Positions 1 to 58,349 of a DNA stretch of 64,000 nt are shown piece after piece. Source of the DNA: Polyangiaceae bacterium (lineage in GTDB: Bacteria > Myxococcota_A > Polyangia > Polyangiales > Polyangiaceae). The notes beneath the pieces are model-generated. The model was not told the DNA's origin, made no database searches, and was given only the letters and a program-made list of their open reading frames with translations. Position 1 is the stretch's first letter. Each line of letters opens with the position of its first letter. The stretch is from contig JADJXL010000022.1 of the NCBI GenBank assembly GCA_016715885.1, positions 11,588 through 75,587 of the forward strand, given 5' to 3'. Position numbers and translations under genes: made by a program.

Positions 1-3000
1 GTTGGGCAACTGTTGATCAACCTCCGATCTCCGGCGAATACGATTCGTTGGTTATCTACGTTGAATGGTGGCACTGGCGATGATTACATAGCGACGGTTT
101 TCGATTCCAATGCAACGATGCCCGTCACCGCCGTTGGTGCGCCATTCACGGGCGTCTTCCGACCGGAATACACGTTGACGCAATACGAGGGAACCGATTT
201 CCTGAATCAGAATGCGCTTGGTTCATGGAGCCTCGGAGTGGCCGATAACACGACCGGAACGTCGGGCACGGTCGAACGCTGGAGCTTGGCGTTGTGTTTG
301 GACACCGTCGTATTTTGCGGCAATGGGGTCGTCGATCCCGGCGAAGAGTGCGACGACGCCAATACGAACGATGCCGACGCGTGCACGCGCTTCTGCACCG
401 CCAACGAAGGGTGCGGTGACGGAAACATCGACCCCGGCGAACAATGTGACGACAGCAATGGTGCAGTGGGTAATGATTGTTCGCAGACGTGCGAAGTTGC
501 AATCACGTGCGGCGCTGGAGAGACGTCGATCGCCGTGACGAATGAAACGCCGACGTCGATCCCCGACAATAACTTGACATTCACGAGCTTGCCCGTGAAC
601 GTGGCGACGACGGGCAAAGTGCGAAAGGTGATTGCCACGATTGGCGGCATCAACCACACGGCAGATGCCGACTTGGACATTCAGCTACGTTCACCGAGCG
701 GCACGGTGCGCATCTTGTCCGATGACAATGGTGGCACCGGCGACAATTACAACACGACGATTTTCGACGACTCGGCAGGTGGAATGGTCGTCAATGCGAG
801 TGCGCCATTCAGATCGAAGTACCGTCCCGAGCAATCGTTGTCGACGACACCCGGGACCGATTTCCTGAGCGAGCCTGCCGCTGGAGAATGGGCGCTCGAG
901 GTGCGAGACGACGCGGCAACCAATGTCGGCACGTTCCTGAGCTGGACCCTCACGATGTGCGTTGCGACCGAGTGCGGAGATGGCAATCTGGGGCTCGGCG
1001 AAGAATGCGATGACGGCAATATGGTCGACAACGACCTTTGCTCCAACGGTTGTCAGCTCAATGGGGGCTGTGGCAATGGCAAGGTCGATGTCGGCGAAGC
1101 ATGCGACGACGACAACTTGGTATCGGGTGACGGCTGTTCCCCGACGTGCGACGTCGAATTGACATGCGCCCCTGGACAAACGTCGATCATGGTTGCAAAC
1201 GACACGCCGTTCGCCATGCCCGATGCGAATACGTTCGTCGATGCGCCCGTGAGCATTCCGACGGCGGGCGCCGTGAAGAAAGTCGTTGCGGTCGTCGGAG
1301 GCATCACGCATCCGAATGCGGCGGACGTGGACATCCAATTGCAATCGCCCATCGGCACGACACGCGGCCTGTCCAATGACCGAGGTGGCACGGACGACAA
1401 TTACAGATCGACGATCTTCGACGACTCGGCAACGACGGGCATTGCGTTTGCCACGGCGCCATTCTCCGGAAGATACCGGCCCGAGCAGACGATGTCGACG
1501 ACTGCGGGAACGGATTTTGCCCATCAAAACGCATTGGGCATCTGGAACTTGAAGGTCAGGGACGACGCCGTGGGTTTCCTCGGTACGTATGAAAGCTGGC
1601 GTTTGCTCATGTGCCTCGATACCGTCACGTATTGTGGCAATGGCATCGTCGATCCGGGCGAGGAATGCGACGACGGCAATCAAGTGGATGCCGATGCGTG
1701 CAGCAATGTGTGCAAAATGAATGAAGGTTGCGGTGATGGCAACATCGACGCTGGCGAATGGTGCGACGACAACAACGTGACCTCGGGCGATGGTTGTTCG
1801 TCGACCTGCGAAGTCGAAGTCACTTGCGCACCCGGTGAAACGCCGGTCATCGTCTCGGATGACCCCGCGAGCCCCATTCCGGACAACAATACGTTCGTCG
1901 ACTTCCCCCTGACGGTTTCCACGATAGGCGGGGTAAAGAAAGCCATGGTGGTCATTCGCAGCATCGTTCATCCGAACGTCGCCGACTTGGACATCCAATT
2001 GCTCGGGCCGAATGGGATGGTGCGTAATTTGTCCGATGACAACGGCGGAGTGAACGACAACTACGCGTCGACGTTCATTGCAGACTCGTTCACGTCGGCC
2101 ATCACCGGTGGCGCGGCGCCGTTCAGCGGCAAATACCGGCCCGAAGCATCGCTATCGGTCAATCCCAGTGTGGACTTCTCGTTGAAGAACGCAGCGGGCA
2201 CCTGGACACTTCAAGTGCGCGACGACGCAGCGACGAATGCCGGCACTTTCCACGGCTTTACGCTGGCTCTCTGCGTCGATGCCGCGAGCTACTGCGGCGA
2301 TGGAATCACCGGTGCCGGTGAAGAGTGCGACGACGGCAATACCGTCGATAACGACGCGTGTTCCAATGGCTGCCAGTTTACGGACGGTTGCGGCGATGGG
2401 AACCTCGACCCCGGCGAACAGTGCGACGACAATGACGTGGTATCGGGCGACGGTTGCTCGGCCACGTGCCAATTCGACATCGCATGCGGCAACGGTGAAG
2501 TACCCGTCCTGTTGTCGAATACGACGGCTACGTCCATTCCCGAAAATCCGAACGGCGTATTCAGCACGATGGACGTCGCCCAGCCTGGTGTCGTGCGAAA
2601 GGTCATTGCGTCGCTCGGTATCACCCATGCGTCGAATTCCCAAGTCTTCGCCTTCCTCGATTCTCCCTACGGCGTCCGGCGATTGCTCGCTTCGGGACTC
2701 GCAGGCAGCAACCAGACTGCCACGATATTCAGCGACGATGCGGCCATCGCCATCACCGGTGGAACAGCGCCGTACACAGGTCGCTTCAGGCCTGCACAGA
2801 CCATTTCGAATGCGGCTGGTTTTGCAAATCAAACCGCCATGGGCACCTGGCGTTTGCACGTCGGCGATGGCACGACAGGGACGGTCGGGACGCTCAATTC
2901 GTGGCGCCTCGCCCTTTGCATCGACCCGAGCGTCACGACGGTCTGCGGCAATGGTTATGTGGAACCCGGAGAAACCTGTGACGATGGCAATACGACGAGC

Positions 3001-3489
3001 GCCGACGGTTGCTCATCGACCTGTCAGCTCGAATTCACGTGCCCACCGGGCCAAGTGACCATCATGCAATCGTCCACCGACGGCCCGTTGCTCATTCCCG
3101 ATAACTTGTCGGCCGGTGTTCAAAGCGTCATCAACCTGGGCGATGCCTACACGGTGACCCGAGCGGTTGTCGTGGTCAACTCGATTACCCACTCGGTCGT
3201 CGGCGATCTCATCACGACACTCATCTCGCCTGCGGGCACGTCGGTCACGTTGAGCGCGAATGTCGGTTCGAGCGGCGATGATTATGTATCGACGGTTTTC
3301 GATGCTGGTGCAGCAACGCCGATTGCGTCGGGGACTGCTCCGTTCCGTGGAGTTTACGCGCCGACGGGGGTCCTCCCCAACGTGACTGCTCAAACGTCGA
3401 AGGGCACGTGGACGCTCAAGGTCGCGGACGACAACAGCGGCGCTGCCGGCTTGTTGAAATCGTGGACCATTGCGCTTTGCGGTAATTAG
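1..3489 (+). CDS. Secreted modular protein (5'-truncated at window edge): at least 6 tandem proprotein-convertase-type P-domains alternating with pairs of Myxococcus Cys-rich repeats (CxxxG..D.GEECDDGN)
   Basis: The ORF 13..3489 is open to position 1 in the same frame and the first residues (DLDI-like ...LRSP.GT...) lie mid-P-domain, so the gene starts upstream of the window. The P-domain signature (HT/HP..DLDIQL.SP.GT...L...GG..DNY..T.F.D..........G.W.L.V.D......G.L.SW.L..C) recurs 6 times and CGNG..D.GE.CDDGN-type Cys repeats recur 11 or more times. The module period is about 215 aa, or about 645 bp. Confidence 0.8.
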   Translation, partial: VGQLLINLRSPANTIRWLSTLNGGTGDDYIATVFDSNATMPVTAVGAPFTGVFRPEYTLTQYEGTDFLNQNALGSWSLGVADNTTGTSGTVERWSLALCLDTVVFCGNGVVDPGEECDDANTNDADACTRFCTANEGCGDGNIDPGEQCDDSNGAVGNDCSQTCEVAITCGAGETSIAVTNETPTSIPDNNLTFTSLPVNVATTGKVRKVIATIGGINHTADADLDIQLRSPSGTVRILSDDNGGTGDNYNTTIFDDSAGGMVVNASAPFRSKYRPEQSLSTTPGTDFLSEPAAGEWALEVRDDAATNVGTFLSWTLTMCVATECGDGNLGLGEECDDGNMVDNDLCSNGCQLNGGCGNGKVDVGEACDDDNLVSGDGCSPTCDVELTCAPGQTSIMVANDTPFAMPDANTFVDAPVSIPTAGAVKKVVAVVGGITHPNAADVDIQLQSPIGTTRGLSNDRGGTDDNYRSTIFDDSATTGIAFATAPFSGRYRPEQTMSTTAGTDFAHQNALGIWNLKVRDDAVGFLGTYESWRLLMCLDTVTYCGNGIVDPGEECDDGNQVDADACSNVCKMNEGCGDGNIDAGEWCDDNNVTSGDGCSSTCEVEVTCAPGETPVIVSDDPASPIPDNNTFVDFPLTVSTIGGVKKAMVVIRSIVHPNVADLDIQLLGPNGMVRNLSDDNGGVNDNYASTFIADSFTSAITGGAAPFSGKYRPEASLSVNPSVDFSLKNAAGTWTLQVRDDAATNAGTFHGFTLALCVDAASYCGDGITGAGEECDDGNTVDNDACSNGCQFTDGCGDGNLDPGEQCDDNDVVSGDGCSATCQFDIACGNGEVPVLLSNTTATSIPENPNGVFSTMDVAQPGVVRKVIASLGITHASNSQVFAFLDSPYGVRRLLASGLAGSNQTATIFSDDAAIAITGGTAPYTGRFRPAQTISNAAGFANQTAMGTWRLHVGDGTTGTVGTLNSWRLALCIDPSVTTVCGNGYVEPGETCDDGNTTSADGCSSTCQLEFTCPPGQVTIMQSSTDGPLLIPDNLSAGVQSVINLGDAYTVTRAVVVVNSITHSVVGDLITTLISPAGTSVTLSANVGSSGDDYVSTVFDAGAATPIASGTAPFRGVYAPTGVLPNVTAQTSKGTWTLKVADDNSGAAGLLKSWTIALCGN

Positions 3490-5186: not shown

Positions 5187-7337
5187 TCACTGGTTCAGAA
5201 TGAGCGCATTCAGCGCACCTTGAATGATGGAGGCATCGCCCGCGCTGACGAGGGCCCCGCCGGGTGCATTGACCGAACCCGCAAGCCTCGCTTGCACCTT
5301 GATGGTATGCGTTCCGGGCGCAAGGTTGACGACCTGTCCCATGCCCCAGAAAGCCGTGGGACTCTGCCAGTTGGCAGCATTGTTGAGGCAATACAGGCGC
5401 TGGAAACCACCGTGCGGGAGCGCGGCGCCATCCACGATGAGCTGGATGTCCACGACCACGCTGCAGCTCGTCACGGTGCAGGTCAATGCCGGGACGACCC
5501 CGCCGTCGGTCTCGATGTAGACGAAGCTGCCGCCCGCTGAGGCGGGGACGTTGATCGTGGTATTGAGGCCCGGGACATCCGCGAACGTGAACGTGGTGGT
5601 GGTCAATGACCCGGTGCCCCAGGCATACGCCGCGGCTTGGCCGGTCGTACCCGTTGCGCCCGTGGGACCGGCGGGACCTTGCGGCCCGGTAGGTCCGACG
5701 TTGCCCTGGGGACCTTGAGCGCCGGTAGCACCCGTGGGCCCAGCGGGACCTTGAGGCCCCTGCGCACCGGTAGCGCCCGTAGGTCCGACGGGACCTTGCG
5801 GCCCCATGGGGCCCACGTTTCCTTGTGGACCCTGAGCGCCGGTGGCCCCGGTGGGCCCGATGGGACCTTGAGGCCCCTGCGCACCGGTAGCGCCCGTAGG
5901 TCCGATGGGACCTTGAGGCCCCGTGGGGCCCACGTCGCCCTGGGGTCCGGTAGGTCCGACCTCCCCTTGAGGCCCTGTCGGACCCATAGGCCCGGCAGGT
6001 CCGACCTCCCCTTGAGGCCCCGTGGGGCCCATGTTTCCTTGTGGACCCTGAGCGCCGGTGGCCCCGGTGGGCCCGACGTCGCCCTGCGGTCCCTGCGCAC
6101 CGGTAGCGCCCGTAGGTCCGATGGGACCTTGAGGCCCCGTGGGGCCCACGTCGCCCTGGGGTCCGGTAGGTCCGACCTCCCCCTGAGGCCCTGTCGGACC
6201 CATAGGCCCGGTAGGTCCGACCTCCCCTTGAGGCCCCGTGGGGCCCATGTTTCCTTGTGGACCCTGAGCGCCGGTGGCCCCGGTGGGCCCGACGTCGCCC
6301 TGCGGTCCCTGCGCACCGGTAGCGCCCGTAGGTCCGATGGGACCTTGAGGCCCCGTGGGGCCCACGTCGCCCTGGGGTCCGGTAGGTCCGACCTCCCCTT
6401 GAGGCCCTGTCGGACCCATAGGCCCGGTAGGTCCGACCTCCCCTTGAGGCCCCGTGGGGCCCATGGCTCCTTGTGGACCCTGAGCGCCGGTGGCCCCGGT
6501 GGGCCCCATGTCCCCCTGCGGTCCCATTGGCCCCATCGGACCCATCGGTCCGATGTCCCCTTGCGGTCCCATTGGCCCTGTCGGCCCCATCGGTCCGATG
6601 TCCCCTTGCGGACCCGTTGGCCCCATCGGACCCATCGGTCCCGTAGGGCCGGTCTCTCCCTGAGCGCCCGTTGCACCGGTTGGGCCCATCGGCCCCGGAT
6701 CACCCTGCAGACCCATCGGTCCCATCGGTCCAATGTCCCCTTGCGGACCCGTTGGCCCAGGCAAACCGTCCGCACCGGTTGGTCCGGCGGGCCCTGCGGC
6801 ACCCTCCGCACCCTGTGGACCCGTCGCACCCGTCGCGCCGGTCGGCCCCACGAGCCCCGTGGGCGGGCCAACCCATTCGCCATTGTTGTTGATGACTTCC
6901 GTGCCCCCGATGGAAACGCTCGTCGGATGAATGTCACCGTTGACATCCTGCGCGAGAAGCGCATAGGGCACGCTTTGTATCGGCGCGCGAGGCAGAAGCT
7001 CGGGTTCGCTGCCGACGGTGATTCCGAAATAGCGCAGCGATCCGTCGAATATTTTGTCCCCAAACGGGTTCTTCGAGCCGAGCGAAACCGAGTAGTAGCC
7101 TTCTTCGAAGGAGACCGAGTGCGTCTCGCTCCAAATGGGCACCGTGGCGTCCACCGTGTCGTAGATGGCGAACACCACTTCGAGCGATCCATCGATGGGC
7201 GCGCCATCGACATCGAAGAGCCGGCCTTGGTTGGTGATGGTTTGCGGAACGGCGGCGAGCGCATGATCAGCGACTGCAAAAATGCTGGTGGCCAGGATGG
7301 TCGCCGCAGCCCATTGCCGAAGTTTGCGAATCCTCAT
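5187..7337 (-). CDS. Secreted collagen-like triple-helix repeat protein (about 480 aa of Gly-X-Y) with a signal peptide and a C-terminal non-collagen domain
   Basis: The G-P-x-G-x-x run is uninterrupted. Starting at Met 7337 gives a signal peptide ([29 protein letters not shown]); the ORF finder extends to 7379. The C-terminal approximately 150 aa is a Thr/Val-rich beta domain. Confidence 0.85.
5881..6528. repeat. Three near-identical head-to-tail 216-bp (72-aa) tandem repeats inside the collagen-like gene, with more diverged copies extending to about 5665 and about 6700
   Basis: The string gcaccggtagcgcccgtaggtccgatgggaccttgaggccccgtggggcccacgtcgccctggggtccggtaggtccgacctcccc recurs at 5881, 6097 and 6313, a spacing of 216 bp. 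Confidence 0.9.
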
Positions 7338-7450
7338 GTCGCGCTCCACGCTCGAATCGCCCAGGGCACAAAGTCCCATCCGAGCTTTCCACGAGGCTAC
7401 GTGAAACGTTCACTGGCGGTCAATGCCGGTGCGCGTGCTCGACCGTGAGT

Positions 7451-7520
7451 CTCGGGCCCCCCATCGTAAACAAGCCTCGCGCAGCGCGCGTCCCACGTGC
7501 GCTGCGCGAGCGTACAAATC
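7451..7520. repeat. Intergenic repeat copy R1 (CCCCCCATCGTAAACAAG + about 50-nt GC-rich extension), about 80% identical to 27405-27470
   Basis: Direct alignment of 7441-7520 with 27400-27480 (gagtctcgggccccccatcgtaaacaagcctcgcgcagcgcgcgtcccac... versus gagcctcggcccccccatcgtaaacaagactctcgcgagcgcgtgtcccac...). Confidence 0.7.
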
Positions 7521-7686
7521 AAGGCCCGCTCTCGATCCCCCCAGATTGACAATCAGGCCCCTTTACGTCTCCGAAAAACCCTGAGAAGATGACAACGTTG
7601 TGCGCTCGGGTCGATGACGACGCGCGGCGCCATTTGGGGCTCGGCTGCTTCGGCGTGCTTCGCCCTTGATTCTATCGGAGGAAACC

Positions 7687-9363
7687 ATGCGCTTGATTGT
7701 TTCTCCCACGTTGCTTGCCATTTCTTGCGTCGCACTGTTCACCGCGGGCTGTAGTCCGACGGTCGATTCGTCTCCCTTGGCAACGGGCGGCGCTGGGGGC
7801 GAAGGTGGAGCTGGCGGCGCAGGAGGGGAGGCCGGCCAAGGTGGCGGCGGCGGCCCTTCGTGCATTCCCGAAGCCGAACAATGTGACGGGATGGACAACG
7901 ATTGCGACGAGCAAGTCGACGAGGACTGTCCGTGCATCGATGGTCAAACGCAAGACTGTTATTCGGGGCCGATGAACACGAGCGGCGTGGGCGCTTGCAT
8001 CGGTGGGCAGCAGACATGTAACCTTGCCGGCGAATGGGGACCGTGCATGGGCGAAGTGCTTCCCGGCACCGAAACGTGCAACAACGTGGATGACGATTGC
8101 AATGGTCTCGTCGACGACATGGGGACGACGTCGTGCGGCGTGGGTGCTTGCGGCGCAACGGTATTGGTGTGCGAAAACGGGCAGATGAATAGCTGCGTCC
8201 CGGGCAATCCGTCTCCCGAGCTATGCGATGGGCTCGACAACGATTGCGATCAGCTCGTGGATGAAACGTATCCCGGCAAAGGAAGCGCGTGCGATACCGG
8301 CGTTCCCGGCGCATGCGCGGCAGGGAAAACCGATTGCCTCATGGGCGCACCCATGTGCGTGCAAGACGTCATGCCGACGACGGAGATCTGCAATGGCGTC
8401 GATGACGATTGCAATGGCATGGCGGACGACAACATCGCGGGCACGGGCACGGCTTGCGGGACCGGGCTTGCGGGTGTGTGTTCGCAAGGTACCTATTCGT
8501 GCAAGTTCAACGTCATCGATTGTCATCCGGACATTCCCGCATCGCCCGAAATGTGCAATGGTCTCGACGACGATTGCGACGGCGTGACGGACGAAGACGA
8601 TCCTCAAGGTGGCGCCGTGTGCATGACGGGCATGCCCGGCATTTGCGCGACGGGCATCGAGCATTGCAATGGCGGCGCGATCGCGTGCGTGCCCGATTCG
8701 CTCGGGAATCCCGAGCTATGCAACGGCCTCGACGACAACTGCGATGGCATGGTCGATGAAAACAACCCGGGCGGCAACGCCGCGTGCGGATGCGGCGGCA
8801 CGACGCAATGCCAAAGTGGAGCGCTCAATTGCATCGGCGGCCCGACGACGTACTTCATCGAAGACTTCGCGGACAACGAAGCCGGCTGGACGCTCGATAC
8901 GGAATGGCAGATCGCGCCCGCCGTGTCGGGCTGCAGCGGTTACGATCCCGGTACGGATACGACGCCGACATCGGACAATGGCATCGCTGGCGTTGCCATC
9001 GGTGCATGCGCAGCGACGTCGAGCACGCACCCATACTATTACCTGACGAGCCCCGTCATCAATACGGCAAATGCGCCTGCAGTATTCCTGCAATTCCGAC
9101 GGTGGCTCACGAGCGACTATACGCCGTACATGAAGAACGTGATCGAAGTGTACAACGGCTCGAGCTGGGTGGTCGTTTGGGAAACGTTCGGCTCACCTGG
9201 AGTGACCGACACGTCCTGGCAAACGCCGGTGTACGACATTACGGCGCACAAAAATGCAAATATGCGAGTTCGCTGGGGATTCAATGTCGGATCGACCGGC
9301 GCATTCTCTCGCGGCCAATGGAACATCGACGACGTGCTCGTTGCGTCCGCCGCGTGCCCCTGA
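7687..9363 (+). CDS. Lipoprotein with 8 or more MopE-type putative metal-binding Cys repeats (E.CNG.DDDC[DN]G..DE) and a C-terminal jellyroll/MAM-like domain
   Basis: A GGAGG ribosome-binding site lies 5 nt before ATG 7687. The lipobox reads LFTAGC and is followed by a Gly-rich linker. A C-x-G-x-D-(D/N)-D-C-(D/N)-G motif repeats about every 45 aa. The last 180 aa are Cys-poor beta-rich sequence. Confidence 0.75.
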   Translation: MRLIVSPTLLAISCVALFTAGCSPTVDSSPLATGGAGGEGGAGGAGGEAGQGGGGGPSCIPEAEQCDGMDNDCDEQVDEDCPCIDGQTQDCYSGPMNTSGVGACIGGQQTCNLAGEWGPCMGEVLPGTETCNNVDDDCNGLVDDMGTTSCGVGACGATVLVCENGQMNSCVPGNPSPELCDGLDNDCDQLVDETYPGKGSACDTGVPGACAAGKTDCLMGAPMCVQDVMPTTEICNGVDDDCNGMADDNIAGTGTACGTGLAGVCSQGTYSCKFNVIDCHPDIPASPEMCNGLDDDCDGVTDEDDPQGGAVCMTGMPGICATGIEHCNGGAIACVPDSLGNPELCNGLDDNCDGMVDENNPGGNAACGCGGTTQCQSGALNCIGGPTTYFIEDFADNEAGWTLDTEWQIAPAVSGCSGYDPGTDTTPTSDNGIAGVAIGACAATSSTHPYYYLTSPVINTANAPAVFLQFRRWLTSDYTPYMKNVIEVYNGSSWVVVWETFGSPGVTDTSWQTPVYDITAHKNANMRVRWGFNVGSTGAFSRGQWNIDDVLVASAACP

Positions 9364-25577: not shown

Positions 25578-27308
25578 TTGCTCCTCGCGCTCCTCACCAA
25601 CCTCCTGCTCCTCGTCACGTCGCCACTGCGCCTTCTTCGACGCGCGTTCGTGTCGCCGCGCAAAGGCTACGTTCTGCTCGAAATCGATGGTCGCGTGGTC
25701 GACAACGCGCCGCCGAGACCGCGCCTGCTCGCTCGATGGACCCAGCCCCAAAAGCCGCCGCCACTGACGCTCGTCGCAATGCACGAGGTCGCACGGCTGC
25801 TCGCCGCGGATGCGCGTCTCGAAGGGCTCGTCGTCCGTGTGCGCTCGCTCGCAGCAGGCCAGAGCGTACTTGCATCGATGCGCGCCGTTCTCGCCAAGCT
25901 TCGCGATGCCGGAAAAGACGTCGTCGTTCACGCGCCCATGGGCGCCGACTCCGACGTCATGTTTCTCGCATCAGGCGCCAAGCGCATCGTCGTCGGTCCT
26001 GAAACGCACGTCGCCCCGCTCGGATACGCCGTCGAGATGAGCTTCTTCAAACGCGCGCTCGACCGCATCGGCGTCGAGCCTCAAGTGTTCGCTCGCGGCA
26101 CGTACAAGTCCGCGGCCGAGCCTCTGGTGCGCGAGGACATGAGCTCGGCGCAACGCGAGCAGCTCGAGGAGGTCATCGGGACGCGCCATGCACTGCTCGT
26201 CGAAGCGCTCGCCGAACGTTGTGGGGGCGATCGCGCAAAAGCCGCCGAGTGGATCGACACGGGCCCCCATCGTGCCTCGCAAGCGGTCGAGCTCGGCCTC
26301 GTTGATCACGTCGCGTACGACGACGAGCTCGATGGGCTGCTCGGCGCGCCGCACGGAAAGCGTGCGCGCTTCGTCGCGTTCGGGCGTTACCACCGCATCA
26401 AGCGCCCAACGAAGTGGCGACCGCTGTGGCCGAGGCCGGTCGTCGGGCTCGTCGAAGTGCACGGTCCCATCGTGTCGCAAGTGCGCTTCTCGATGGGCGC
26501 CATCGCTTCCGAACACGCGGTCGTGCGGGCCATCCGAGCGGCACGCGTCAACCCGCGCATCGCCGCCGTCGTGCTGCACGTCGATTCCCCTGGCGGCAGC
26601 GCCATCGCCTCCGACCGCATCCACCACGAAGTCGAACGCCTCGCGTCGGAAAAACCCGTCGTGGCCTACTTGTCGAACGTGGCTGCGAGCGGCGGCTATT
26701 ACGTGGCCGCGCCCGCACGCGCCATCGTCGCGCAGCCTCAGACCATCACCGGCTCCATCGGCGTCGTGGCCACGCATTTCGTGCTTCGTGGCTTGCTCGA
26801 CAAGCTCGGCGTCAGCACCGACGTCGTCAAGCGAGGCGCGCGTGCCGACCTGAACTCCCCCGTACGTCCGCTCGAAGACGCCGAGCGAAGCGTGCTCGAG
26901 CGTGAGGTCGACGCGTTCTACAAGACTTTCGTTTCCGTCGTGGCTCGCGGCAGAAAGCGCTCGGTCGAGGACATTGAAAAGCTTGCTCAGGGCCGCATCT
27001 ACAGCGGCACCGAGGCCCTTGCGCGAGGGCTCGTCGATGAGCTCGGCGGCCTCGACCGCGCCATCGAGCGGGCGACGGACTTGGCCGGCTATCGGCGTCT
27101 CGAACCGGTCATCGTCAGACCGACCCGGTTTTCGATACCCCCTCCACCGCCCATTCCTCGGGTTGCCGAAACGATGCTCGCGGCGGTTGGGCTCGACCGC
27201 ATAGTGGGTGAACGCCTGGCGCTTGGACTGAACGTCGCCCAAACCGAGCTGGTTCTGCTGTACGAGCCCTTCGGTTCGGATGGACGAACTTGGCTCGATG
27301 TGACGTAA
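25578..27308 (+). CDS. sppA: Signal peptide peptidase SppA, 67K type (tandem S49 domains)
   Basis: Two ClpP/crotonase-like S49 repeats with a GGYYVA / SGGY motif; length 576 aa. Confidence 0.8.
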   Translation: MLLALLTNLLLLVTSPLRLLRRAFVSPRKGYVLLEIDGRVVDNAPPRPRLLARWTQPQKPPPLTLVAMHEVARLLAADARLEGLVVRVRSLAAGQSVLASMRAVLAKLRDAGKDVVVHAPMGADSDVMFLASGAKRIVVGPETHVAPLGYAVEMSFFKRALDRIGVEPQVFARGTYKSAAEPLVREDMSSAQREQLEEVIGTRHALLVEALAERCGGDRAKAAEWIDTGPHRASQAVELGLVDHVAYDDELDGLLGAPHGKRARFVAFGRYHRIKRPTKWRPLWPRPVVGLVEVHGPIVSQVRFSMGAIASEHAVVRAIRAARVNPRIAAVVLHVDSPGGSAIASDRIHHEVERLASEKPVVAYLSNVAASGGYYVAAPARAIVAQPQTITGSIGVVATHFVLRGLLDKLGVSTDVVKRGARADLNSPVRPLEDAERSVLEREVDAFYKTFVSVVARGRKRSVEDIEKLAQGRIYSGTEALARGLVDELGGLDRAIERATDLAGYRRLEPVIVRPTRFSIPPPPPIPRVAETMLAAVGLDRIVGERLALGLNVAQTELVLLYEPFGSDGRTWLDVT

Positions 27309-27333
27309 CGTGCAGGTTTGGAATAAGGCAAAT

Positions 27334-27420
27334 TTCGGGGGGGTATGGGGGGGCCGAGCCTCGCCGTGTTTTTGTGCGAAGCGCAAAAACACCGGGAGGC
27401 GAGCCTCGGCCCCCCCATCG
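27334..27420 (+). repeat. Hairpin repeat element R2: TTCGGGGGGGTATGGGGGGG-[imperfect long hairpin]-CCCCCCCATCG
   Basis: G7-TAT-G7 at 27337-27353 and C7 at 27410-27416. The internal near-inverted repeats are ccgagcctcgccgtgtttttgtgcg / cgcaaaaacaccgggaggcgagcctcgg. Confidence 0.8.
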
Positions 27421-28037
27421 TAAACAAGACTCTCGCGAGCGCGTGTCCCACACGCGCGAAGCGAGCGTCCAGGTCTGGCCCGGTTTCAAACGCGGTTTGG
27501 CCGGGTGCATTTCGAGCCTGATCCCGCAAAATTTGCGTTTGGCCGGGCGCCTCATCGCGCCGCATGCATGTTTTGCCGGAGAACCTCGAGGCAAGGAAAA
27601 TGTGCATGTATTCCAACGCACTGCGTTGGGGTTGCCAAACCCTTGCAGTCGAAGGCGAGCATTGTGGACAAACTGCGCGAAATCTGTGCAGTTGTTCCGG
27701 TCAACCTGGGGGTCGAGGTACGGGTGTTCAGAAATCGCGTAGCGCCTTACACACCCTATATGTTGAGCCGAGTGTTGACACCTCGCGCTACCTGTAGAAG
27801 AGAATGGCTCCCCGGTGACTCCGGGACACCGACCGAGACGGGCCGATGGTTCGTCCCGGAGGAGTGATCTCATGTACCCCCTGAAAGCATTGACAGTGAG
27901 CAGCCGTGCAGACGGCTCATGCGTGCGGACGGGGAGGGGCGAGCCTTTTAGGGTTCTTGCAGGGCGATGAATTGAGAGGGGCGAATTGGGGCCTGGGGTC
28001 CCAAGGTGCCTTTTTTTGTCTGAGGAGACAATACTGA

Positions 28038-31000
28038 TGGCGCAGCCGATGATCGTTGGGGATGGCGGAAACGGAAAGTTGGCAGCAGACGCAGTGCGTT
28101 CGGACAGCCGCCCACCGGAATCCGGTGCTGTGCGACGGGGTTCGAAGGCCAAACCCGCTGCCAAAACTGCCGGAAAAACCCCTGCCAAACGCGAAGCGAA
28201 AAAAGCTACGCGCCCCAAGGGCCTCACGTTCGACCGTCATTTCACGCGCCGAGGCACGGACCCGCTCAACGAAATCGTTTGGGAGCGTAGGTCCAGCGTC
28301 ATCACCAATCCCGACGGCTCGGTCGTCTTCAAAATGGAAGGCGCTGAAATCCCCGCGAGCTGGTCGCAACTCGCCACCGACATCGTCGTCTCCAAGTACT
28401 TCCGCAAAGCTGGCATTCACGGCAACAAAGAGGTTGGCGAGACGAGCGTTCGCGAAGTCGTGCATCGGCTCGCGAAAACCATCCGCGAAGCGGGTGAGTC
28501 CTTCGGTGGCTACTTCGCCAACGGCAAGGAAGCGGACACGTTCGAGGCCGAGCTTTCACACATGCTCGTCAATCAGCTCGGCGCCTTCAATTCACCGGTC
28601 TGGTTCAACTGCGGTCTTTGGCATCGCTACGGCATCCAAGGAACCGCAGGCAACTACGCCTGGATCGAAGACCCGAAGGACGAAACCGCTCCGGGCACCA
28701 TCGAAGAGATCCAATACGCCTACGAACGCCCGCAATGCTCGGCTTGCTTCATCCAGTCCATCAACGACGACTTGATGAGCATCTACGACCTCATCAAGAG
28801 TGAAGCGCGCCTCTTCAAGTACGGCTCGGGCACCGGCACGAACTTCAGCACCATCCGCGGCAAGCAAGAGAAACTCTCCGGCGGCGGCACGAGCTCGGGT
28901 CTCATGAGCTTCCTCGAAGTCTTCGATCGCGCCGCCGGCGCAACCAAGAGCGGTGGTACGACGAGGCGCGCGGCCAAGATGGTCTGCCTCGACATGGACC
29001 ATCCTGAAATCCTCGACTTCATCGAGTGGAAGGTCCGCGAGGAGCGCAAGGCGCAGATGCTCATCTCCTGCGGCTTGCCTTCCGACTTCAACGGCGAAGC
29101 CTATCACACGGTCAGCGGCCAGAACTCGAACAACTCCGTGCGCGTCACCGATGAGTTCATGCGCGCCGTCGGCGTGGGCGGGACGTGGGAGACGCGCAGC
29201 CGAACGAACGGCGAGGTCATCGACACGTACAACGCTCGCGAGGTCTGGAAGACGATCGCCGAGGCAGCGTGGGCTTGTGCCGACCCCGGCGTTCAATACG
29301 ACACGACCATCAACCGCTGGCACACCTGCCCGAACTCGGGCCGCATCAATGCCTCGAATCCGTGCTCCGAGTACATGTTCCTCGACGACACGGCTTGTAA
29401 CTTGGCGAGCCTCAACCTCACCAAGTTCCTCCGCTCCGACGGTTCGTTTGACATCGAAGGATTTCGTCACGCTGTGCGTGTCTTCTTCGTTGCGCAGGAG
29501 ATCCTCGTCGACTTCTCGTCGTATCCGACGCGATCCATCGCCCGAAATTCGCACGACTACCGCCCGCTCGGTCTGGGCTACGCCAACCTCGGCACCATGC
29601 TCATGCTGCTCGGCATCCCCTACGACTCGGATGAAGGACGAGCCGTTGCTGGTGCCATCACGGGCATCATGTGCGGACATGCCTACAAGGTTTCGGCCGA
29701 GATGGCTGCGACGCGTGGACCGTTCCCCGGCTACGCCAAGAACCGCGAGCCGATGCTTCGCGTGATGGGCATGCATCGCGACGCCGCGTACGCGATCGAT
29801 CGTGACAAGTGCCCCGAGGGTCTCTGGCGGGCTGCTTGTGAAGACTGGGACGAGGCTTTGCGCATCGGCCAAGAGCATGGCTATCGCAATGCGCAAGCGA
29901 CCGTGCTCGCTCCGACGGGAACGATCGGCTTGCTCATGGACTGCGACACCACGGGCATCGAGCCCGACTTCTCGCTCGTGAAGTTCAAGAAGCTTGCTGG
30001 CGGGGGCTATTTCAAAATTGTCAATCAGTGCGTCCCCGAAGCGCTTCGGCGCCTCGGTTATTCCGAGCACGAGGTTCAGGAGATCGTCGCGTACGTATCC
30101 GGCACGAACACGCTCTTGGCAGCGCCGCACGTCAATCGAGCGTCGCTGAAGGCTCGCGGCCTGACGCATGAAGACCTCGCGAAGATCGAGAACGCCATCC
30201 CTGGAGTCTTCGATCTCGAGCTTGCGTTCAGCCCGTGGGTGCTCGGTGAAGAAGCCTATGCGCGACTCGGCATTACGCCCGAACGACGCACGCCCGGCTT
30301 CTCGCTCCTGCGATCGCTCGGCTTTACGTCTGCCGAAATCGCGGAAGCCAACGAGACGATCGTCGGTCGCATGACGATCGAGGGAGCGCCGCATCTGCGC
30401 GAAGAGCACTACGCGGTGTTCGATTGCGCCAACCGTTGCGGCAAGATTGGCAAGCGATTCCTCGCGCCCATGGCGCACATTCGAATGATGGCGGCAGCGC
30501 AGCCGTTCCTGTCGGGCGCCATCTCCAAGACGGTGAACCTGCCGAATGAAGCGACCGTCGAGGAGGTGCAGCGAATCTACGAAGAGGGGCACCGCTTGGG
30601 GCTCAAAGCAGTCGCGCTCTATCGCGATGGGTGCAAGGCGTCGCAACCGCTCTCGTCGTCGGGTGATTCGAAGAAGGACAAGAAGGAGGAAAAGGTCGAG
30701 GCGGTCGAGGTCATGGCGCCGAAACCGATCGAGCCGGCTCTTCCGGTGCTTCGCCCGACGGGTGTGCGCGTGCGTCTACCCAAGAAGCGGACGGGGTTCA
30801 CGCAAGAAGCGAAAGTTGGAGGTCATAAGATCTTCGTTCGTACCGGTGAATACGTCGATGGAACGCTCGGTGAGATCTTCATCGACATGCACAAGGAGGG
30901 CGCTGCCTTCCGGTCGCTGATGAACTGCTTCGCCATGAGCGTGTCGATCGGTTTGCAATACGGCGTGCCGCTCCAAACGTTCGTCGATCAGTTCACGTTC

Positions 31001-31378
31001 ACTCGGTTTGAGCCCCAAGGAGTCGTCGAAGGGCACGACTACGTGAAGCTGTCGACGTCGATCGTCGACTACATCTTCCGCACGTTGGGCATCGAGTACC
31101 TGCATCGGTACGACTTGGCTCACGTGCAACCCGAGCCGAATGTGGCGATTCAGGATCCGACGGACACGCGTGCGCAGGAAAGCTCGTCTGGCGTGCCCGT
31201 TCTGCCTGCGGCCACGCGTGCCCCCTCGCATGAACGCACTGCGTCGAGCGCGCTCGATGCGCAGCTCGAAGACATGATGGGCGACGCTCCCGTGTGCGAC
31301 GGTTGTGGTCACATCACCGTGCGCAATGGCGCTTGCTACAAGTGCCTGAACTGCGGCAACAGCATGGGCTGTAGCTGA
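28038..31378 (+). CDS. nrdJ: Class II (adenosylcobalamin-dependent) ribonucleoside reductase, long form with C-terminal Zn ribbon
   Basis: GAGGAG lies 9 nt before ATG 28038. RNR class II motifs are present and the C-terminus reads CDGCGH...CYKCLNCGNS. Confidence 0.85.
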
Positions 31379-31387
31379 GGCCAGTCG

Positions 31388-31476
31388 CGATGGGGGGGCT
31401 CGCAGGCGGCTCTGTGAGTGTTTTGGCCAAAGGCCAAATGACGGGCCGACTGCTCTGCCCCCCATACCCCCCCGAA
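31388..31476 (-). repeat. Hairpin repeat element R3, an inverted-orientation copy of the R2 termini (CGATGGGGGGG...CCCCCCATACCCCCCCGAA) with a different internal palindrome (ttggcctttggccaa)
   Basis: The reverse complement of 31458-31476 equals 27334-27352, and the reverse complement of 31388-31399 matches 27409-27420. Confidence 0.75.
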
Positions 31477-31540
31477 TGGGCCTCGTTTCAAACTCTTCGG
31501 TGTTCTAGCCGCAAGCTTGAAGAACGGGTAAACGGGATTC

Positions 31541-56265: not shown

Positions 56266-56338
56266 GCTGGCGTAGCTCAATCGGTAGAGCACCTGCCTTG
56301 TAAGCAGGGGGTTAGGGGTTCAAGTCCCCTCGTCAGCT
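56266..56338 (+). tRNA. tRNA-Thr (anticodon TGT)
   Basis: Cloverleaf gctggcg / D-arm agctcaatcggtagagc / anticodon loop cTTGTAa / T-arm ggttcaagtcc / cgtcagc. Confidence 0.85.
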
Positions 56339-56483
56339 CCGTGGGGTTCAGACGGGGGGCGAACCCGGTGGCAGATCATGAAGAGAACGTAAAGGCCGAT
56401 TGAGGAACGGGAGAGACGAGAGCCAAGGAGACGCGTACTGAGACAAACCGTGAGTAGACACGGGATCGTTTGCATTGACATAT

Positions 56484-56567
56484 GGAGGGTTGCCCGAGCG
56501 GCCAAAGGGAGCAGACTGTAAATCTGCCGGCGATGCCTACGTTGGTTCGAATCCAACACCCTCCACC
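56484..56567 (+). tRNA. tRNA-Tyr (anticodon GTA), long variable arm
   Basis: ggagggt...gcagactGTAaatctgc...ggttcgaatcc...accctcc. Confidence 0.85.
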
Positions 56568-56652
56568 GAAACGCCGAAAGGTGTTTCGACCAGCAGGGCC
56601 GGCTCGATCGTTTGAGGACGAAGCAAAGGGGAAACTCGATGCTTTCAGATTC

Positions 56653-56728
56653 GCGGGCGTAGCTCAGTTGGTAGAGCGTCAGCCTTCCAAGCTGAACGTC
56701 GCCGGTTCGAACCCGGTCGCCCGCTCCA
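56653..56728 (+). tRNA. tRNA-Gly (anticodon TCC), CCA encoded
   Basis: gcgggcg tagctcagttggtagagc ...cTTCCAa... ggttcgaaccc cgcccgc tcca. Confidence 0.85.
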
Positions 56729-56738
56729 CCGGCCCATT

Positions 56739-56814
56739 GCCCACCTAGCTCAGTTGGTAGAGCACGTCCTTGGTAAGGACGAGGTCGTCGGTTCAAGCCC
56801 GATGGTGGGCTCCA
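56739..56814 (+). tRNA. tRNA-Thr (anticodon GGT), CCA encoded
   Basis: gcccacc tagctcagttggtagagc ...tTGGTAa... ggttcaagccc ggtgggc tcca. Confidence 0.85.
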
Positions 56815-56872
56815 CGAAGGGAAGAATTGCTCGCGCGACCGAATTGGTCGGCAATCGTCAGGAGACAGCTCG

Positions 56873-58063
<1,191 letters not shown>

Positions 58064-58074
58064 CGGGTGACGAG

Positions 58075-58239
58075 GTGCAGGCCAGCGGTGGGCGCAAAAC
58101 GCGAGAGACGGTTTCGTTGGCCTGCACCGAGTGCAAGATGAGGAATTACAAGACGACGAAGGCTCCCGGTAGCCACATAGAGATCAAGAAATTTTGCCCG
58201 ACGTGCAAGAAGCACACTATGCATCGGGAGACGAAGTAG
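58075..58239 (+). CDS. rpmG: 50S ribosomal protein L33
   Basis: Starting at GTG 58075 gives a 54-aa protein, ...[45 protein letters not shown], with the conserved L33 Cys4 Zn-ribbon motif. It was found as the tail of a mixed-frame ORF. Confidence 0.75.
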
Positions 58240-58276
58240 AGGTTCCGCTCGGCTCGCAAAGTGCCAAGCGGACTGA

Positions 58277-58349
58277 AGGGGTATAGCTCAGTTGGTAGAG
58301 CAGCGGATTCCAAATCCGCAGGTCGGGAGTTCGAGCCTCTCTGCCCCTG
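58277..58349 (+). tRNA. tRNA-Trp (anticodon CCA)
   Basis: aggggta tagctcagttggtagagc agcgga-ttCCAaa-tccgc ...ttcgagc... tgcccct g. Confidence 0.85.

Follow-up and report, generated by a model that had tools for sequence, protein, structure and literature searches.

Repetitive extragenic palindromic (REP) sequences of Escherichia coli stabilise the mRNA that lies upstream of them, and those located 15 nt or less from a stop codon reportedly stall terminating ribosomes and trigger trans-translation (Liang, Rudd & Deutscher, Mol Cell 2015). REPINs consist of two inverted REPs of the same sequence and are tied to a single-copy gene for a REP-associated tyrosine transposase (RAYT), which is flanked by REPs (Bertels & Rainey, PMC3116915; PMC3337134). 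Here, we describe hairpin elements in a 64,000-nt stretch of a Polyangiaceae genome (assembly GCA_016715885.1, contig JADJXL010000022.1, positions 11,588 to 75,587 of the forward strand), referred to as the window. In this window, nrdJ is bracketed by two mutually inverted copies, R2 and R3, of an element of approximately 88 nt. R2 and R3 are probably old and diverged members, and a third element, R1, a decayed member, of a family of extragenic hairpins that resembles REPs and bacterial interspersed mosaic elements (BIMEs) and functions at the 3′ ends of mRNAs; that they bracket nrdJ is probably incidental. R2 and R3 were characterised by reading the letters, by folding and by comparison with shuffled sequences, and are located as follows.

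27334–27420, plus strand: R2, consisting of TTCG-G7-TAT-G7, a near-perfect hairpin of about 30 bp, and C7-ATCG.
31388–31476, minus strand: R3, consisting of TTCG-G7-TAT-G6 ... C7-ATCG, with an interior diverged from that of R2.
28037–31378, plus strand: nrdJ, class II B12-dependent ribonucleotide reductase, with the likely start ATG at 28037.
25578–27308, plus strand: sppA (peptidase S49), with 25 nt between its stop codon and the G-run end of R2.

As the original prediction held, inverted copies of an element of about 90 nt flank nrdJ and share their termini exactly, in one block of 19 nt (TTCGGGGGGGTATGGGGGG) and one of 12 nt (GCCCCCCCATCG). The G7TATG7 core has no match in 100 shuffles of the window, and all five G7 runs of the 64-kb sequence lie inside R2 or R3. 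Over the termini, 31 of 31 positions are identical, for which the probability is about 1e-6 at the rate of the interior, where 37 of 56 positions agree (30 ± 2.7 in shuffles, p = 0.005). This difference between ends and interior shows that the ends are under constraint, and the interiors are, judged from their alignment, weakly homologous. The palindromes thus differ, as had been predicted, but they are not wholly unrelated. An extension of the similarity by approximately 17 nt on the TTCG side was rejected, since 12 of 17 identical positions are not significant.

Both elements are predicted to form a long hairpin on either strand, with −60 kcal/mol (z = −5.7) for R2 and −45 kcal/mol (z = −2.7) for R3. 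The G7:C7 closure previously proposed for both hairpins has to be revised for R3, whose stem is closed by G6:C6, while its C7 is the outer unpaired run. Further, ATG7C and GC7AT form an inverted pair of 10 nt, but this pair is simply the base of the hairpin. R1, R2, and R3 are all intergenic and all fold as hairpins; the metagenome copies described below are intergenic as well.

The same architecture recurs in other genomes. We define the family by a hairpin clamped by ATG6-7 and C6-7AT and by an extra run of G6-7 joined by T, such that the top strand reads G6-7-TAT-G6-7 ... C6-7-AT around an interior that varies while remaining self-complementary. A 19-mer scan of representative genomes, a set that does not include the source genome, returned two matches: a chance match in Streptomyces and a Methylomirabilota metagenome-assembled genome (MAG; locus L002), where TTCGGGGGGGTATGGGGGG-CCATTTCGGGG-CCCCCCATC lies between two convergent genes, with a second copy 4 kb away. 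In metagenomes, the pattern G6TATG6-N(9–69)-C6AT is found in at least 120 contigs, a set that was gathered with G6TATG6 itself and is probably dominated by one clade. Among the metagenome matches listed, about 85% have a 34-nt form, and at least 48 distinct interiors of at least ten unrelated types occur, all of them self-complementary and 9 to 43 nt long. The copies compared in this way show a constant clamp and outer run around an interior that evidently co-varies. Together with the absence of R2 and R3 from seven relatives (see below), this recurrence supports the initial description as a REP- or MITE-like repeat (MITE, miniature inverted-repeat transposable element).

Ahead of the 34-nt Methylomirabilota-type form stands a second conserved hairpin, TCGAGGGGYGCCMCGGCTTCGCCGGGGCGCCCCGAGCGTT, in one to three tandem copies (e.g., in L005, L023, and L040). 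Between convergent genes, the composite of TCGAGGGGYGCCMCGGCTTCGCCGGGGCGCCCCGAGCGTT and the 34-nt form takes up the entire spacer and directly adjoins the two stop codons (L003–L122 set). Further sub-families with the G6TATG6...C6AT core are represented by L015, L044, L048, L069, and L079 as well as by L042 and L107. In one sub-family, the core is followed by extra G-run/C-run modules (CATGATCGGGGGGTTCCGGGGGGTCGCCCCCCCGG), and L042 carries tandem units of about 55 nt. For the low-GC long-form locus L024, a homologue search returns DUF932 metagenome proteins. Generic ATG6...C6AT hairpins of viral contigs, which are mostly T-tailed terminators, display an outer G run in 1 of 120 cases, which indicates that the extra G run is specific to the family. 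Rfam matches only tRNAs in the window at the gathering threshold, and E-value scans of R1, R2, R3, and the L002 copy give only far-sub-threshold microRNA or long non-coding RNA noise. Likewise, the literature search yielded nothing specific on the motif strings, on Rokubacteria repeats, or on REPIN/RAYT in myxobacteria. With neither an Rfam nor a literature match, the extragenic repeat family appears to be previously undescribed.

The position of the copies relative to genes is polar. With copies oriented as G6TATG6...C6AT and an open reading frame (ORF) cut-off of at least 100 codons, 78 of 123 copies have an opposite-strand ORF that terminates no more than 15 nt from C6AT, mostly at −1 to +5 nt, compared with 3% for random positions. 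After deduplication and removal of copies at contig ends, an ORF end at −1 to +15 nt from ...CCCCCCAT is found for 62 of 80 main-type copies and for 8 of 20 copies with other interiors (random 3%). Altogether, about 70% of the copies are stop-proximal in a single polarity. The 73 genes abutting metagenome copies are real genes and represent 71 Pfam families, among them OmpA, ABC permeases, CoA-transferases, and dehydrogenases; the element is thus generic rather than gene-specific, and a gene-specific regulon is ruled out. A preference for a particular stop codon is not convincing (TAG 39% beside elements versus 29% in the background, n = 41). R3 obeys the family rule: its sequence on the nrdJ mRNA strand is CGAUG7-[hairpin]-C6AU-A-C7GAA, and its ATG7 begins 11 nt after the nrdJ TGA. 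From this placement, we infer that the family acts in cis on RNA at the 3′ ends of genes.

In the mechanism we favour, the mRNA in the usual polarity would carry the stop codon, AUG6-hairpin-C6AU, A, and C6 in this order, and the very stable stem-loop would begin within the footprint of the terminating ribosome. As the stem starts inside ribosome-covered mRNA, it would form only after release of the ribosome. The formed stem would then block 3′-exonucleases and attenuate read-through into the next gene. Accordingly placed, R3 would both label the 3′ end of the nrdJ mRNA and shield it, and it would give nrdJ partial insulation against the following gene, which is only about 40 nt away in relatives without R3. 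R2 and its companion hairpin could block read-through from sppA, though in the unusual polarity of the family. Copies would spread by a copying mechanism that needs the conserved termini, and the exact conservation of the ends suggests that they are recognised by a protein.

These functions overlap in part with those initially proposed, namely an sppA terminator and structures in the 5′- and 3′-untranslated regions (UTRs) of nrdJ. A role of R3 at the 3′ end is plausible because of its distance from the nrdJ stop codon and its family-typical polarity. The two other proposals fare less well. A scan for terminators gives no candidate at R3 and, at R2, nothing beyond internal partial stems (tails AUCGUAAAC and AUACCCCCCC), and R2 and R3 are not canonical intrinsic terminators, since neither has a U-tract. 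Moreover, R2 is located about 480 nt upstream of a conserved NrdR-box/−35-like region, a position that speaks against an nrdJ 5′-UTR element.

The missing U-tract is also one of several points that speak against a REP/BIME-like family acting at 3′ ends. R2 has the rare polarity, with its G-run side facing the sppA stop codon, and R1 lies ahead of a lipoprotein gene, in a divergent promoter region. With two intact copies and one partial copy, the number in the 64-kb window is low. Three additional copies in 684 kb of metagenome loci correspond to about 0.4 per 100 kb and therefore to tens per genome, not the hundreds typical of REPs. Further, most metagenome matches probably come from one clade, and a single external copy is taxonomically typed. 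The GTAG head of REPs is absent. Neither a RAYT nor another transposase was found, though no systematic search for transposases was made; Y1_Tnp (RAYT, PF01797) is not among the 25 most frequent of the 71 Pfam families abutting metagenome copies, and the genes adjoining R2 and R3 are sppA, nrdJ, and the gene of a 156-aa protein.

The history of the locus can be read from seven syntenic Polyangium-like relatives, whose nrdJ is 83–91% identical; the nrdJ product itself is 100% identical to a protein of a Polyangiaceae MAG. In the window, nrdJ is preceded by RNase J (minus strand) and sppA (plus strand) and followed by the 156-aa gene (plus strand), an AIR-synthase-like gene (AIRS, minus strand), and a PocR histidine kinase gene (minus strand). 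Order and orientation of RNase J, sppA, nrdJ, a 153–156-aa gene, AIRS, and the PocR kinase are the same in all seven relatives. The divergence of nrdJ is in step with that of its neighbours, which identifies nrdJ as native to the locus and rules out a xenologous replacement.

Neither R2 nor R3 is present in the orthologous spacers of the seven relatives, R2 being absent from the sppA-nrdJ spacer of L123, L125, L126, and L247, and no family copy was found in about 66 kb of Polyangium relatives. In L248 and L249, about 40 nt separate the nrdJ stop codon from the next gene (TGA-CGA(GA)TCTAGCCGC...), which represents the empty site for R3; the window has about 125 nt more in this spacer, R3 included. 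The same spacer holds unrelated hairpin-rich inserts of about 125 nt in L125 and L126 and an antitoxin/ParE toxin pair between nrdJ and the 151–156-aa gene in L124 (8548–9095) and L247 (5014–5561). As R3, the other hairpin inserts, and the toxin pair all occur there, the spacer behind the nrdJ stop codon is a hotspot of lineage-specific insertion. The comparison shows R2 and R3 as gains of this Polyangiaceae lineage at two fast-evolving spacers that flank a native nrdJ.

The non-coding region upstream of nrdJ (27480–28036) is strongly conserved at the DNA level among the Polyangium-like relatives and contains several small hairpins. A NrdR-box-like CACTA..TAGTG beside TTGAC (−35-like) is located near 27850–27900, and a terminator-like hairpin with a T7 run (27986–28015) lies just before the Shine-Dalgarno sequence and ATG of nrdJ. 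The region, for which an Rfam search gave no match, could serve as a long regulatory leader or as an attenuator, or it could encode an unannotated small RNA.

R2 is accompanied by a second hairpin, which it has in common with R1.

7389–7466, plus strand: R1, a 5′-truncated or degenerate copy without G-runs, formed by an imperfect hairpin (7389–7456) and CCCCCCATCG (7457–7466).
7467–7513, plus strand: linker TAAACAAG and second hairpin (7474–7513) of R1, homologous to 27421–27469.
27421–27469, plus strand: linker TAAACAAG and second hairpin (27428–27469) of R2, with a GC stem and a UCCCA/CCC loop.

The arms CCGAGC/CTCGG of R1 resemble those of R2, and both elements end in C6ATCG. R1 shares 63 nt with the sequence directly 3′ of R2 (27421–27483), and the second-hairpin units are 89% identical over 47 nt (E 1e-7). 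Folding yields a dG of −34.6 (z −5.1) for the second hairpin of R1 and of −27.8 (z −2.9) for that of R2, which differ by a compensatory change from C-G to U-A beside the loop. By its predicted fold, R2 with the second hairpin is a BIME-like cluster of two different hairpins. The companion hairpin of the Methylomirabilota-type copies differs from that of R1 and R2. The minus-strand ORF 7563–7937 was rejected as a gene served by R1, as it overlaps the real lipoprotein gene, which encodes a signal peptide and a lipobox.

The window also encodes a cluster of repeat-rich secreted-type proteins (13–3489, 5187–7379, and 7687–9363). A large ORF has Myxococcus-type Cys-rich repeats of 660-nt period, a protein of collagen triple-helix repeats is encoded on the minus strand, and a further member is a lipoprotein that carries MopE-like metal-binding motifs. 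Elsewhere in the window, five tRNA genes are clustered at 56266–58349. From their sizes and order, the ORFs after this cluster may be the usual nusG/rplK-rplA-rplJ block.

The empty sites of the relatives also fit a different origin, in which the elements are classical MITEs, i.e., non-autonomous derivatives of a DDE transposon that duplicate their target site and use the ATG7C clamp as terminal inverted repeat. The candidate duplications and a pattern shared by both insertion boundaries are listed here.

27309–27321, plus strand: CGTGCAGGTTTGG, the left copy of an imperfect direct repeat of 13 nt around the insert of R2 and second hairpin.
27466–27478, plus strand: right copy of this repeat, CGTCCAGGTCTGG.
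27477–27491, plus strand: GGCCCGGTTTCAAAC, an exact match of the pattern GGCCNNGTTTCAAAC, just right of the R2 cluster.
31479–31493, plus strand: GGCCTCGTTTCAAAC, the second exact match of GGCCNNGTTTCAAAC, 2 nt right of R3.

The block of R2 and second hairpin, about 145 nt long and absent from L123, is enclosed by CGTGCAGGTTTGG and CGTCCAGGTCTGG. L123 has a single post-stop sequence, which agrees with the region of the right copy in 16 of 17 positions. A different imperfect repeat, of 7–9 nt, lies on the two sides of R3 (GGCCAGTCG and GGGCCTCG). However, shuffling assigns no significance to the 13-nt repeat, and we therefore treat it as suggestive only. The two putative duplications are unlike in length and sequence, and the block between the 13-nt repeats has no terminal inverted repeats. 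Additionally, most family members are too short for a MITE with their 34 nt, and no transposase is known for the family, a statement that does not rest on a systematic search. We consider a MITE origin unlikely. The pattern GGCCNNGTTTCAAAC has exactly two matches in the window, both on the plus strand although R2 and R3 are inverted, and both are partly ancestral sequence in the relatives; the pair could reflect target preference, gene conversion, or coincidence.

A further explanation assigns the function to the runs themselves. The homopurine mirror repeat G6-7-TAT-G6-7 and the C run would form a non-B structure, namely an intramolecular G*G:C or C+*G:C triplex, a G-quadruplex, or register-shifted alternative hairpins. 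Being read by the transcription or translation-termination machinery, this structure would be kept across phyla and abut stop codons. Outer run and TAT linker are indeed invariant in R2, R3, and all recovered sub-families and nearly absent from generic G6/C6 hairpins; this invariance is partly circular, as the metagenome set was gathered by G6TATG6. G7-TAT-G7 fits the quadruplex pattern G3-N1-G3-N3-G3-N1-G3, but most copies have G6 rather than G7 and would allow two-tetrad quadruplexes only, while runs of C+ triples are unfavourable at neutral pH. The strictly polar, stop-proximal placement is in line with such a device, as is an unrelated phage motif, C6-TT-G6-TAT-G6, that combines the same three runs. 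On the other side, a 9-nt slippage duplication, seen as (G6TAT)n in L075, could create the outer run. It is improbable that the G6-7-TAT-G6-7/C6-7 module is a structural device (triplex, quadruplex, or register-switching hairpin) common to unrelated soil phyla that, placed where the terminating ribosome covers the mRNA, would link the end of translation to 3′-end formation or decay of the transcript. If it were, R2 and R3 would be versions with long interiors, and their complementary ends might also pair across a read-through sppA-nrdJ transcript.

The phage motif is found in many phage contigs of different backbones (15 loci) as gCCCCCCtt-GGGGGGTATGGGGGG-ttttt, with a T/C-rich tract and short direct repeats resembling iterons behind it. 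It contains one C6 and the same G6-TAT-G6 mirror repeat in a different order and looks like a conserved cis site, possibly ori, cos, or pac. Viral G6TATG6 matches were rejected as family members, since a C6 is nearby in only 8 of the 125 matches listed.

The arrangement of R2 and R3 around nrdJ had originally suggested that the inverted pair mediates inversion or excision of the 4-kb nrdJ segment; in a related scenario, R2 and R3 would pair in the sppA-nrdJ read-through transcript and loop out the nrdJ mRNA. Of intact copies, the 64 kb contain just two, and both adjoin the same gene; a rough estimate (about 50 spacers, random placement) puts the chance of this at about 4%. Further, RNA cofolding of R2(+) with R3(+) yields a calculated −131 kcal/mol compared with −105 kcal/mol for the separate hairpins. 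Against an nrdJ-specific device stand the conserved order and orientation in seven relatives that lack the elements, the neighbour-like divergence of nrdJ, and the position of R2 upstream of the conserved promoter-like region. The minimal processing segment of RecA recombination is approximately 23–27 bp. The inverted identity of R2 and R3, just 19 and 12 nt, falls below this length, so that RecA-dependent recombination between them is not supported. No recombinase gene is adjacent, the neighbours being sppA, RNase J, AIRS, and a histidine kinase, and elsewhere the family occurs as single copies after unrelated genes. A device of this kind is highly improbable, and inversion or excision finds no support; instead, the paired copies may reflect two permissive hypervariable spacers around nrdJ. 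Finally, chance similarity of two independent GC-rich terminator hairpins, or of G/C-tract composition in general, can be dismissed even though the post-stop spacers of these genomes are full of unrelated GC hairpins, because the core is never matched in shuffles, the termini are identical throughout, and the same signature recurs in at least 120 metagenome contigs and the Methylomirabilota MAG.

For the window, a REP/BIME-like family implies that nrdJ does not reside on an invertible or mobile cassette but next to ordinary hairpin repeats at gene ends, R2 and R3 being lineage-specific hairpin insertions at two hypervariable spacers. Of moderate interest is the family itself, which combines a homopolymer clamp with a mirror-repeat G run, spans two phyla, and abuts stop codons in one polarity. 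It offers a natural system for the effects of stop-proximal hairpins on translation termination, mRNA 3′ ends, and operon polarity, in the setting of high-GC soil bacteria without canonical terminators. A second question raised by the family is which enzyme copies such elements.

Among described systems, the REPs and BIMEs of Enterobacteria and Pseudomonas are among the closest to the elements described here. They too are short imperfect palindromes in strictly extragenic positions, mostly at gene 3′ ends or between convergent genes, they are often clustered with other hairpins, and their interiors evolve while pairing is kept. The clustering is mirrored by R1 and R2, each with the TAAACAAG linker and a second hairpin, and by the Methylomirabilota-type copies with their one to three companions. 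In contrast to REPs, the family lacks GTAG; the stem is preceded on its 5′ side by TTCG-G7-T in the window and mostly by GTT or GCG before G6-T elsewhere. It possesses a homopolymer G/C clamp with an extra G run, and its interior ranges from 9 to about 58 nt. Copies apparently number tens per genome, whereas REPs typically reach 100 or more, and the same ends occur in both Myxococcota and Methylomirabilota. Moreover, the family is positioned very tightly (−1 to +5 nt) and in a polar manner at stop codons.

The REPIN-RAYT system resembles the family in its long hairpin-forming non-coding repeats, which persist in a lineage and whose conserved parts are presumably recognised by an enzyme. It differs in that R2 and the second hairpin are two different hairpins and not an inverted doublet of one REP. 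R2 by itself, a near-perfect 30-bp hairpin, could pass for an inverted doublet, which is not the case for the 34-nt short forms. With GTAG absent and about 0.4 copies per 100 kb in the metagenome loci, membership of the R2/R3 family in REP/REPIN is not established.

MITEs such as Correia/NEMIS, ERIC, and RUP are likewise short non-coding inserts that have inverted ends, are transcribed together with their neighbours, and display presence/absence polymorphism. However, they usually measure 100–400 bp and have defined terminal inverted repeats and target-site duplications of fixed length, whereas the elements of this family are mostly 34 nt long and the evidence for target-site duplication is weak. 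A GC-rich stem-loop directly past the stop codon is also the hallmark of Rho-independent terminators; here, instead of a U-tract, the stem is followed by AUA-C6-7, which would give a strong rather than a weak RNA:DNA hybrid. Integron attC sites combine conserved ends, an imperfect palindromic interior of variable length, and a post-stop position in fixed polarity. R2 and R3 differ from them in lacking the RYYYAAC/GTTRRRY core sites, their ends being G/C runs, and in the absence of an integrase or cassette array. In addition, the two copies are inverted rather than direct, and their neighbours are housekeeping genes in conserved synteny. The closest known systems are REP/BIME and REPINs, while MITEs, terminators, and attC sites share single features with the family.

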